Positions 52,341 to 54,298 of a DNA stretch of 64,000 bases are shown one piece after another. The stretch lies in UHGV virus genome UHGV-1362809; one strand, 5' to 3'. The notes under the pieces are model-generated. The model saw only the letters and a list, made by a program, of their open reading frames with translations. It did not search any database and was not told the origin of the DNA. The position numbers were made by a program, and so were the translations under genes. The number at the start of each line of letters is the position of its first letter. The stretch's first letter is position 1. The stretch comes from a virus.

Positions 52341-54298
52341 AATTAGTCAAATAGGACTTAGTAGATCAAATGTATTTTAGTAACTCTTTAGTATGTCTGT
52401 ATTGGGTCGCTAACGCCTTAGCTCCACGCCCCCGAAAAACGAGTTTTTCTCCTCTACATCTTGGCTTTGAGCGACTCCAAAACCATTATTTTTAGTAGAT
52501 TTTCTGCCGTTTTTAAAGACACTGCCCCTATCTGCGCCGCCTCTTCCCTTCCAATTCTCTGTAAAGATGAAAAATCGGTCAACTATTCTGTACTAAAGAG
52601 TTATGAATGTTGTTTTTCACCAATGTTGCAAAGGCGTTACTTTGCCGCCTTATACGAGGTGGGTGTTTTAAGGGGAGAGACGCCCATTGGTGTATGTGCA
52701 AGTACACCGCCAGGAACGTATATCGCTATACGCTGCGCAAAAAGGGTTTCCCAGATTTCCTAAACTATACAATAGATTGGATTATTGTAATTTGCACTAC
52801 GACAGGGGCATTAACAGGCTGTTTGGTGTTTATCCCAAAGTAAGGCGGTCCGGCGGTACCTTACAAAAACTGCTCATCCATTTTTACATAGACGCTATAT
52901 ACGATATGGTGTCTTCAATCATATCGCAAAAACAAGTTGCCAAGCATCCTAATGCCAGTTCAGCTCGGCACGTTCTCTGTGTATAACCAAATACACAAAC
53001 CCGAATATATTTGTATGTTCCTCACCTGTTTTCACAGGATTACCTTCTTCGTGCGGGTAGATAAATAGTTATTTTCTACTTATAGGAGGTTTTTAACTAC
53101 GGGTAAGGTTCTCTTAATATAGCATGTATTTTACGAGATTTATAAAAGGGATTTAAAAAATTGTACAAGGTTTTATTTGCTTGAAGTACAGTGGAGGAGA
53201 GCTTTCTTCACGTTTTTTATTCCAATCCGCTACTACAAAGTTCCATATATACGACACAACAATAGTTTTCTGTGTACTTTTTTAAATATATTAGAAATAT
53301 GACCTATATTAAGTGCTACTTGAGAAAGTCTGTACATCTCTTTTCTTCTGCCTGACCTACTACGTTGTAACTATTCCGCATAGGTATTAGAGGTTGCTTC
53401 GCCGTCCCCCAATTTGGTGTATCTGTACTGTGTAAAAATACATTGTTAGGCATTATGCTTGACTCATTATAAACAAACTCAGTGTTTTACTCCAGCGTTT
53501 AACCCTTCGCTAATCCATTTAACGATTTTTACGTCGCTTTGTTTACATGTAATCTCACATTAGTTTTGTGAATCCACCTTTATTATTTCAGCCGCTCAGT
53601 ACGTCCCTGGCAAACAAAGTATCTGCTCCGTCGACGCCTGGCGATATGGTTTTTATTATCTATTAAATTTTAATATCAGAGAAGAGCTATCGCTCAACCC
53701 CAAAGTTTATATATCCATATAATAATGTTATCTGCCTTATTCAGGACTTTCCGCCATACTCGGTTGACAGTAACCTAATTTAATTAGGCTCATCTCTGGT
53801 TCTATGTATGTATACTATAAATTCTCGTGACGTTTGATTGCTTAGTTATAGCCCGTTATACAACAATATAATATATCATCATATATTAGGCTAGCCTTAC
53901 GGTACAACCAACGATTATGCTGTTTTCCTGTCCGATTATCAGCCGCCGTCATAAAATTTATAGCCGAAATCAATCACGCTTCGTACCATTTTATTATGAG
54001 ATGTATTTAATGGTAGTTACCGTTGCCGTAGAATAAATAATTCCTTGAAGCACACGTACATCCAACACTGGACATATTGTACAACGTACAACAGCTGTTC
54101 GTATTGCAGATATATCTCGTATAGTATCTTAGCCTAAAACATATTTTTAAGGATTTAAAAATACTACCAGTAGAGATAACTCTGCTCAAACCGATTGTAG
54201 CTACAAAGCTAAATCTTTGCACCTAAAATTGGTCTGAGGGTTGGTGATAAATGTCACCAACCCATAATATAAATTATTTACACCACTAATATAAATTA

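Follow-up and report, generated by a model that had tools for sequence, protein, structure and literature searches.

The 64,000-nucleotide (nt) stretch of the virus genome UHGV-1362809 analyzed here, referred to as the window, belongs to the genome of an uncultured gut jumbo phage (~235 kb). The genes flanking the locus described below are found again on 234-237-kb contigs, assembled independently in ENA and JGI, as well as on many Logan contigs. The window genes lie nearly all on the minus strand and constitute a replication and nucleotide-metabolism module. Between two of them, encoding proteins of 183 and 214 amino acids (aa), is the only large gap free of open reading frames (ORFs) in this densely coding window (51703-54298), and within this gap lies a conserved element which is a candidate for a giant structured non-coding RNA (ncRNA). 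The features of the locus are as follows.

51151-51702, minus strand: gene for the 183-aa protein, with an AGGAG Shine-Dalgarno sequence ahead of the gene.
51703-54298: gap of 2596 nt between the 183-aa and 214-aa genes, with no ORF above 100 aa.
51900..52360: palindromic, fast-evolving spacer before the 183-aa gene, not part of the RNA.
52395..54237, minus strand: whole conserved structured non-coding element, the candidate giant ncRNA, ~1.85 kb.
52461-52763, 52687-52986 and 52607-52843, plus strand: longest ORFs of the gap (100, 99 and 78 aa, respectively), mutually overlapping in three frames.
54299-54943, minus strand: gene for the 214-aa protein, the other flank of the ORF-free gap.

A first-pass annotation of the window had described a silent, GC-elevated stretch of about 2 kb from position 52350, in a genome whose other gaps measured 0-50 nt. 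The anomaly is real, but the gap in fact begins at 51703, and the figure of 0-50 nt is slightly overstated, since the window has a second-largest gap of 440 nt when ORFs of 90 aa or more are counted; the anomaly nevertheless holds. The absence of any ORF above 100 codons, the three overlapping plus-strand ORFs in three frames and the count of 23 GC in the 40 nt of 52401-52440 were all reproduced. The GC content is 40.6% in 52395-53220 (up to 43% in 400-nt windows) and 35.9% in 53221-54237, compared with 34.4% in the whole window and 29.8% in the adjoining spacer (51703-52394), so that the reported GC island is clear in the left half of the element but marginal in its right half.

Relatives of the locus, across all collections reached, fall into three divergence tiers only.

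Tier 1, ~99% identity: strains L003-L012 and L020-L029.
Tier 2, 96% identity: strain L016.
Tier 3, 78% identity: the lineage of L013 and L014, 4.7-kb contig covering window positions 52200-56907.

An assembly artefact is ruled out by the presence of this locus in 18 or more contigs that were assembled independently (ENA, JGI and Logan). Its sequence is the same in at least four independent assemblies (100% in the loci of ENA k119_39996 and JGI Ga0495776_003993), and the absence of ORFs is therefore not due to sequencing error.

As aligned with L013, the element is continuous end to end, from 52405 to ~54260. It shares 77% identity with L013 when gaps are counted and 80% over ungapped columns, while the four neighbouring genes share 72.6%, 74.5%, 83.5% and 78.2%; per 100-nt bin, the identity between 52600 and 54100 ranges from 66 to 89%, and that of the adjacent genes from 68 to 80%. 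In L016 the identity of the element reaches 98.6%, whereas the genes stand at 94.3-95.7% and the palindrome-bearing spacer at 90.2%. The mismatches to L013 are spread evenly over the three phases in the element (94/87/82), with no 3-base periodicity, whereas the flanking genes display the third-position excess of coding sequence (25/39/110, 32/60/113 and 18/36/90). The indels relative to L013 are not multiples of three, and nearly all ORFs of at least 30 aa in the element are interrupted in L013. The constraint is uneven, as 13 invariant runs of at least 20 nt are found where 2000 permutations gave a mean of 4.3 and a maximum of 11; two of these runs, of 41 nt each, are given below.

53311..53351, minus strand: invariant block of 41 nt, unchanged in all lineages.
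53981..54021, minus strand: second invariant block of 41 nt.

At the level of sequence comparison, the element is thereby shown to be under strong purifying selection as nucleic acid and not as protein. This bears on the proposal that the stretch is decayed or horizontally acquired DNA without function, or a cryptic protein gene hidden by a non-standard code, by small ORFs or by sequencing errors. The GC content above that of the flanks and the few short ORFs, where gene callers called ORFs of 42-73 aa, would agree with such an origin. However, the element is no less conserved than its flanking genes at either of two divergence levels and is the same in the independent assemblies mentioned above, no single stop-codon reassignment opens a long frame (204 codons at most with TAA recoded, and no more than 158 with TAG or TGA), and the 99-aa ORF matches only itself in a HMMER search against 1.84 billion representative proteins. 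Conservation, the lack of codon periodicity and the disruption of the ORFs in L013 exclude decayed DNA, cryptic coding and sequencing error, which are left with a vanishingly small chance. Two suggestions of the first-pass annotation fall with them: a degraded horizontally acquired segment is contradicted by a conservation that equals or exceeds that of the flanking genes, and non-standard decoding by the missing frame upon recoding, the missing periodicity and the ORFs broken in L013.

Consensus folding was carried out with RNAalifold on six distinct sequences, treating the right half (53222-54245) and the left half (52395-53235) separately, and each case was compared with a null of 12 column-shuffled and refolded alignments.

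Right half, minus strand: consensus energy -241 (null -184±7), z -7.8, 29 compensatory pairs against 9.5±3.1.
Left half, minus strand: consensus energy -211 (null -161.5±4.9), z -10.2, 21 compensatory pairs against 5.8±1.8.
Right half, plus strand: z -3.1.
Left half, plus strand: z -7.7, 18 compensatory pairs.

An independent pair-counting of the right half identified 27 pairs changed on both sides, compared with 5.0±1.9 in within-pair shuffles (none of 500 reached the observed count), while controls with slid partners gave 0-2 pairs in the right half with the pair-counting tool and 0-5 in a separate control on both halves. A structure-free enumeration of perfect stems with at least two compensatory changes returned 11 local stems (span <150 nt), where ~2 are expected by estimate from a column-shuffle null. 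Approximately 75 helices are predicted, ~35 of which have covariation support, and the alignment shows the base-pairing of these ~75 helices to be kept by compensatory and wobble changes that are sensible on the minus strand. No families of internal repeats, direct or inverted, occur in 52395-54237, and no complementarity was found between the element and the rest of the window. The large structured ncRNA(s) suggested by the first-pass annotation, for which a comparative alignment had been named as a check, are thus supported by conservation, thermodynamics and covariation, the compensatory pairs lying beyond both the shuffled and the slid controls.

In the order of the minus strand, the predicted parts of the element are the following.

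54263-54238, minus strand: 10-bp hairpin just downstream of the 214-aa gene, without a directly following U-run.
54237-54215 with 54208-54186, minus strand: 5'-proximal hairpin of 20 bp, 2 compensatory pairs.
54185-54106, minus strand: 5' long composite hairpin with a hypervariable tip, 6 compensatory pairs.
54104-53249, minus strand: domain D1 of the consensus fold, ~855 nt.
54104-54094/53260-53249 (11 bp) and 54055-54048/53279-53272 (8 bp), minus strand: predicted closing helices of D1, one-sided changes only.
53554-53539 with 53476-53461, minus strand: 15-bp helix of D1, 3 compensatory and 3 one-sided changes, none broken.
53226-52401, minus strand: domain D2, ~825 nt, the GC-richest part, its 5' end (53226-53183) predicted to pair with its 3' end (52460-52401).
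53191..53221, plus strand: terminator-like hairpin containing G·U, then a T-run conserved in L013.
53025..53038, minus strand: GAAA tetraloop hairpin CCUGU-GAAA-ACAGG, whose stem covaries in L013 (CCCGU...ACGGG).
52715..52734, minus strand: GNRA tetraloop hairpin CGUAUA-GCGA-UAUACG, the loop GCGA being GAGA in L013, with GNRA kept.
52682-52670 with 52550-52538, minus strand: best-supported single helix, 12-13 bp, closing a subdomain of ~150 nt.

The last of these helices carries five compensatory changes, reading CGTCTCTCCCCTT/AAGGGAAGAGGCG in the window and TGCCCTCCCCTTT/AAAGGGGAGGGCA in L013. The stem at 54238..54263 is perfect in both lineages with a different sequence (GGGTTGGTGA...TCACCAACCC vs GGTCGGTAAC...GTTACCGACC), and may represent a terminator-like structure or else mark the 5' limit of the element. 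The interior of D1 contains many local helices and helices of 100-200-nt range with compensatory changes. D1 and D2 share no sequence similarity; the linker between them is A-rich and less conserved (66% identity at 53100-53200). On the minus strand, 53191-53221 comprises the A-rich linker and CUCCUCCAC, whose predicted pairing with GUGGAG and GAGGAG near the 3' end would close D2. The G-rich 3' end of the element (GGGGGCGUGGAG) adjoins the AT-rich, palindrome-rich spacer.

The 4-nt tip of the composite hairpin (54151-54154, within TTTTTAA-NNNN-TTAAAAA) reads ATCC in some strains and GGAT, the reverse complement, or GAAT in others, an apparent loop inversion inside an otherwise near-identical sequence.

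Several observations indicate the strand that would be transcribed. The energy excess over the strand-specific null is far larger on the minus strand, and most 240-nt windows have the higher structure-conservation index on that strand. Within the covariation-supported helices, the ratio of G·U to A·C types is 31:3 (right half) and 13:2 (left half) on the minus strand, as against 5:7 and 8:2 on the plus strand, respectively; such counts are dominated by composition when taken from single-sequence or permissive stems. The two conserved GNRA tetraloops are formed only by the minus strand. On the basis of energy, G·U and A·C types, structure conservation and GNRA loops, the right half is firmly assigned to the minus strand, on which the flanking genes also lie; for the left half the minus strand is probable.

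The strand bias also bears on whether the locus acts as DNA, that is, as a cis-acting origin, a set of single-strand initiation signals or a packaging site, with hairpins in single-stranded DNA or sites for protein binding. The spacer next to the element contains three perfect 16-bp palindromes (TTGTTCTTTAGAACAA; 51942-51957, 52177-52192 and 52326-52341) besides degenerate copies, and related palindromes occur in L013, where the spacer is barely alignable; by its sequence, 51900-52360 resembles an array of operators or iterons to which a dimeric DNA-binding protein could bind. A conserved element adjoining such an array within a replication module would suit a cis-acting DNA site, and compensatory changes would likewise keep hairpins of single-stranded DNA. 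However, the palindromes lie outside the element, which is free of repeat families and GC-elevated rather than AT-rich, the G·U and A·C types of the right half are strongly one-sided, and the GNRA tetraloop is a motif of RNA. No contig ends in the region, which lies ~14-18 kb inside the contigs in all long assemblies. To our knowledge, there is no precedent among origins or pac sites for ~75 helices over 1.85 kb with near-uniform conservation above that of genes. A cis-acting DNA site is accordingly considered quite improbable. The genome termini or packaging signals that had been suggested for the stretch find no support either, as the region is repeat-free and far from contig ends, and strand-asymmetric compensatory pairing is not expected of a double-stranded DNA site.

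Whether the element forms one transcript or several is a separate matter. Two or more separate RNA genes, a minus-strand D1 RNA and an independent D2 RNA, would account for the two halves folding as separately closed domains that are unrelated in sequence and connected by the A-rich, less conserved linker. The D2 RNA might even be transcribed from the plus strand, starting at a promoter-like site (52272-52300) in the palindrome-rich spacer and ending at the hairpin and T-run of 53191-53221, the terminator-like features being kept in L013. The fold of the left half on the plus strand is far beyond its null (z -7.7), with G·U:A·C types of 8:2, and two 240-nt windows of the left half fold better on that strand. 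Against a plus-strand D2, the left half has the larger energy excess (z -10.2) and the greater number of compensatory pairs (21 vs 18) on the minus strand, both of its tetraloops are GNRA on the minus strand only, and the change at 53029 in L016 produces a U·G wobble on the minus strand where the plus strand would have a C·A mismatch. Separate RNA genes are on balance rather unlikely, though well worth keeping in mind.

The element could also be a long structured untranslated region (UTR), either a read-through 3' UTR of the operon of the 214-aa gene, a 5' leader regulating the operon of the 183-aa gene, or both. Such a transcript would fit the strand of the element, which is that of the two neighbouring genes, as well as the missing U-run at the hairpin that follows the 214-aa gene and the lack of a recognised minus-strand terminator on the 3' side. 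However, a fast-evolving spacer of 700 nt with operator-like palindromes separates the element from the 183-aa gene, and no riboswitch or leader family in Rfam matches. The size and sequence invariance of the element are far above those of the bacterial and phage leaders known to us, and a UTR is regarded as improbable. The sequence AATAATTTATATTA, which occurs twice after the 214-aa gene, was considered as a general promoter and rejected, as it is not enriched elsewhere in the window.

The identity of the RNA was searched for among the known families. No match was found in the 64-kb window with cmscan against Rfam 15 (4227 families) at gathering thresholds, and at E<=10 only chance matches of 16-20 bits (P26, FTX_2, rhtB and similar) were returned for 51500-54500. 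GOLLD, ROOL, OLE, group I and group II introns, rRNA, RNase P, tmRNA and riboswitches are thus excluded as modelled. ARAGORN detected no tRNA or tmRNA gene (0) in the window. The Rfam scan and the tRNA/tmRNA search, both proposed with the original observation, therefore returned neither a family match nor a tRNA or tmRNA gene, and its suggestion of a GOLLD- or ROOL-type RNA is not supported, with no Rfam match at E<=10 and no tRNAs nearby.

GOLLD is a large structured ncRNA of phages and prophages without a protein partner or known function, which was recognised by covariation, often lies beside tRNA genes or islands, and has many members longer than 800 nt (PMC12286853). ROOL is likewise encoded by phages and prophages, has a complex multi-helix structure, occurs in habitats of gut or rumen type, usually with tRNA genes in its neighbourhood, and has no known function; both RNAs were shown by cryo-EM to form RNA-only self-assembled nanocages whose roles are unknown (PMC12286853). 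The present element resembles GOLLD in being phage-encoded and in that each of its predicted domains (~0.85 kb) is about the size of GOLLD, but differs in having neither an Rfam match nor a tRNA island, in a conserved length ~2 times that of GOLLD and in its restriction to one phage lineage. With ROOL it shares a phage origin, many helices and a habitat of gut or rumen type, and it differs again in the lack of an Rfam match and a tRNA island; ROOL measures ~0.6 kb, which makes the present element ~3 times longer. OLE is comparable as a large structured bacterial ncRNA with long invariant blocks, but it too has no counterpart here by Rfam; OLE is chromosomal, belongs to anaerobic Firmicutes and has dedicated partner proteins, none of which are seen here.

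Group I and group II introns are also multi-domain RNAs of kilobase scale, common in phages and provided with GNRA tetraloops. A group II intron was rejected, as there is no Rfam match at E<=10 and no ORF for an intron-encoded protein, and the flanks are two complete, unrelated genes. A group I intron was rejected as well, since none matches at E<=10 and the element is not inserted in a gene. The RNA II of ColE1 and the origin transcripts of T4 and T7 offer a further likeness, namely a structured transcript directed toward an AT-rich repeat region, in a replication module, with a G-rich 3' part and a gene of the FEN/RNase H family near, although this is analogy only. These RNAs are no longer than ~0.55 kb and are far less conserved and complex.

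The distribution of the element was surveyed at the nucleotide and protein levels. A blastn search of phage and plasmid records found no homologue of the element. Exact-word scans gave nothing or chance matches confined to the seed, whether in IMG/VR (three invariant blocks), in JGI metagenome contigs (two blocks) or in GTDB genomes (one block). Protein searches with the 214-aa, 183-aa and SbcC-like sequences recovered only the 96-99% group, the L013 group at 75% and SbcC homologues at 22-26%. At the syntenic clamp-loader/SbcC locus, neither L015, a phage of 26% identity, nor PaBG has a comparable gap. Within the reach of exact-word scans, blastn and flanking-protein searches, the element occurs in a single jumbo-phage lineage.

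Positions 52892-52914 of the window recur as an exact 23-nt match at L018 1086-1108, in a metagenome-assembled genome of Alistipes sp. (JAZNTY010000057.1). The match lies inside a coding gene and is not a CRISPR spacer; as no array is near and no further similarity exists, it is judged to be due to chance.

Two of the features by which structured ncRNAs are generally recognised are found here, namely conservation without a coding signature and compensatory pairs beyond controls, in effectively two lineages. With a probability of roughly 0.8, the region 52395-54237 specifies a conserved structured minus-strand RNA, either as one molecule of ~1.85 kb or as two domains of ~0.85 kb. It is regarded as a new, lineage-restricted RNA family within the very small class of large structured phage ncRNAs, of which it would be the largest member at about twice the length of GOLLD. 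The minus-strand transcript would begin with two 5' hairpins, followed by D1 (54104-53249) and then D2 (53226-52401). It may act as a stable folded RNA, serving as a scaffold or as the core of a ribonucleoprotein, or be an ornate RNA that assembles with itself as GOLLD and ROOL do, and the invariant blocks of 20-41 nt may be sites of tertiary contact or partner binding. A part in DNA replication, for example as an origin-proximal pre-primer or R-loop RNA similar to ColE1 RNA II, is a speculative extension, put forward because the element sits in the replication module, its G-rich 3' end adjoins the palindrome-rich AT spacer, and a gene of the FEN/RNase H family lies two genes upstream; the size and complexity of the element argue for more than a primer. 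It is possible, though somewhat doubtful, that the element is a single two-domain ornate RNA of ~1.85 kb acting as a machine or scaffold in jumbo-phage replication (e.g. organising or priming the adjacent palindrome-rich origin), with no homology to known families.

A number of points weigh against the interpretation as a conserved minus-strand RNA. The three divergence tiers (~99%, 96% and 78%) mean that the covariation rests essentially on one pairwise comparison, and the tested structures were predicted from the same sequences. The long-range helices closing the domains are unproven because they are invariant or have one-sided changes only, and the z-scores of local 300-nt folds are modest (-1 to -3). 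The strand evidence is weaker in the left half, where the plus-strand hairpin and T-run at 53191-53221 raise the possibility of a separate plus-strand transcript. Sites resembling sigma-70 promoters are not above chance (20 vs 18.1 expected), no canonical promoter is assignable, and there is no canonical minus-strand terminator at ~52400. No homologue exists outside the lineage in the searches described above, the 214-aa and 183-aa flanking proteins have no family match, with no partner protein identified, and the role in replication is derived from position only.

Very few large (>500 nt) structured ncRNAs besides rRNA are known in bacteria and phages. A single transcript of ~1.85 kb would, if true, exceed in size every other non-ribosomal structured RNA known in bacteria and in the viruses that infect them, and a new, unrelated element ~2 times the length of GOLLD would enlarge the small class of large structured RNAs. 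The element is more tightly conserved than the neighbouring enzymes and would be well suited to study by cryo-EM and chemical probing. Its existence would imply that about 1% of a jumbo-phage genome is given over to such an RNA. The case also shows GC-elevated, ORF-free islands in AT-rich phage genomes to be a productive search image.

The module around the element contains the following genes.

Replication and recombination: family-A DNA polymerase, DnaB-type helicase, single-stranded DNA-binding protein (SSB), UvsX-like recombinase, SbcC-like ATPase, 5'-3' exonuclease (FEN), clamp-loader ATPase and topoisomerase IB.
Others: NrdD, QueC and GTP cyclohydrolase I.

The nearest cultured phages are PaBG, Lu11 and the Erwinia jumbo phages, with merely 25-30% protein identity, and no DNA similarity to phage or plasmid records was detected by blastn. 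The neighbouring unknown proteins have no match in PADLOC, Pfam or PHROG, and the AlphaFold model of the 214-aa protein is unusable (pLDDT, the predicted local distance difference test, 38.8). The 183-aa protein (51151-51702) has a hydrophobic helix at its N-terminus and, after it, an extremely acidic (D/E-rich) region, a composition that recalls, speculatively, a DNA mimic or anti-restriction protein. Upstream of its gene, the G-runs at 51790-51830 (CCCCGCCAAAGGGGGGGTGCCGCGCAATGGGGGGG) vary in length by up to ~8 nt among strains of 99% identity, which could come from slippage at homopolymers, with phase variation ahead of the 183-aa gene, or from noise in the assembly.

A gap of 299 nt between the UvsX-like 938-aa gene and a 136-aa gene (29922-30220, minus strand) has a minus-strand folding energy of -91.1 kcal/mol (100 dinucleotide shuffles giving z -5.2 for that strand and z -3.6 for the plus strand) and no Rfam match. 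By this modelled fold of one sequence, with no divergent relative to compare, it may be a second, smaller structured-RNA candidate. At 59444-60191, an N6/N4 DNA methyltransferase is split into ORFs of 140 and 95 aa, while L003, L004, L006 and L009 contain an intact protein of 248 aa; a frameshift or pseudogene, or a phase-variable methylase, is the probable explanation. Some strains only possess a gene of 506-512 aa with a faint match to DUF7487 between the GTP cyclohydrolase I and 473-aa genes (L003 13746-15284, L004 13747-15267, L006 13742-15280 and L012 3864-5384), which is absent from the window near 47800-48030 and is possibly a mobile or homing element.

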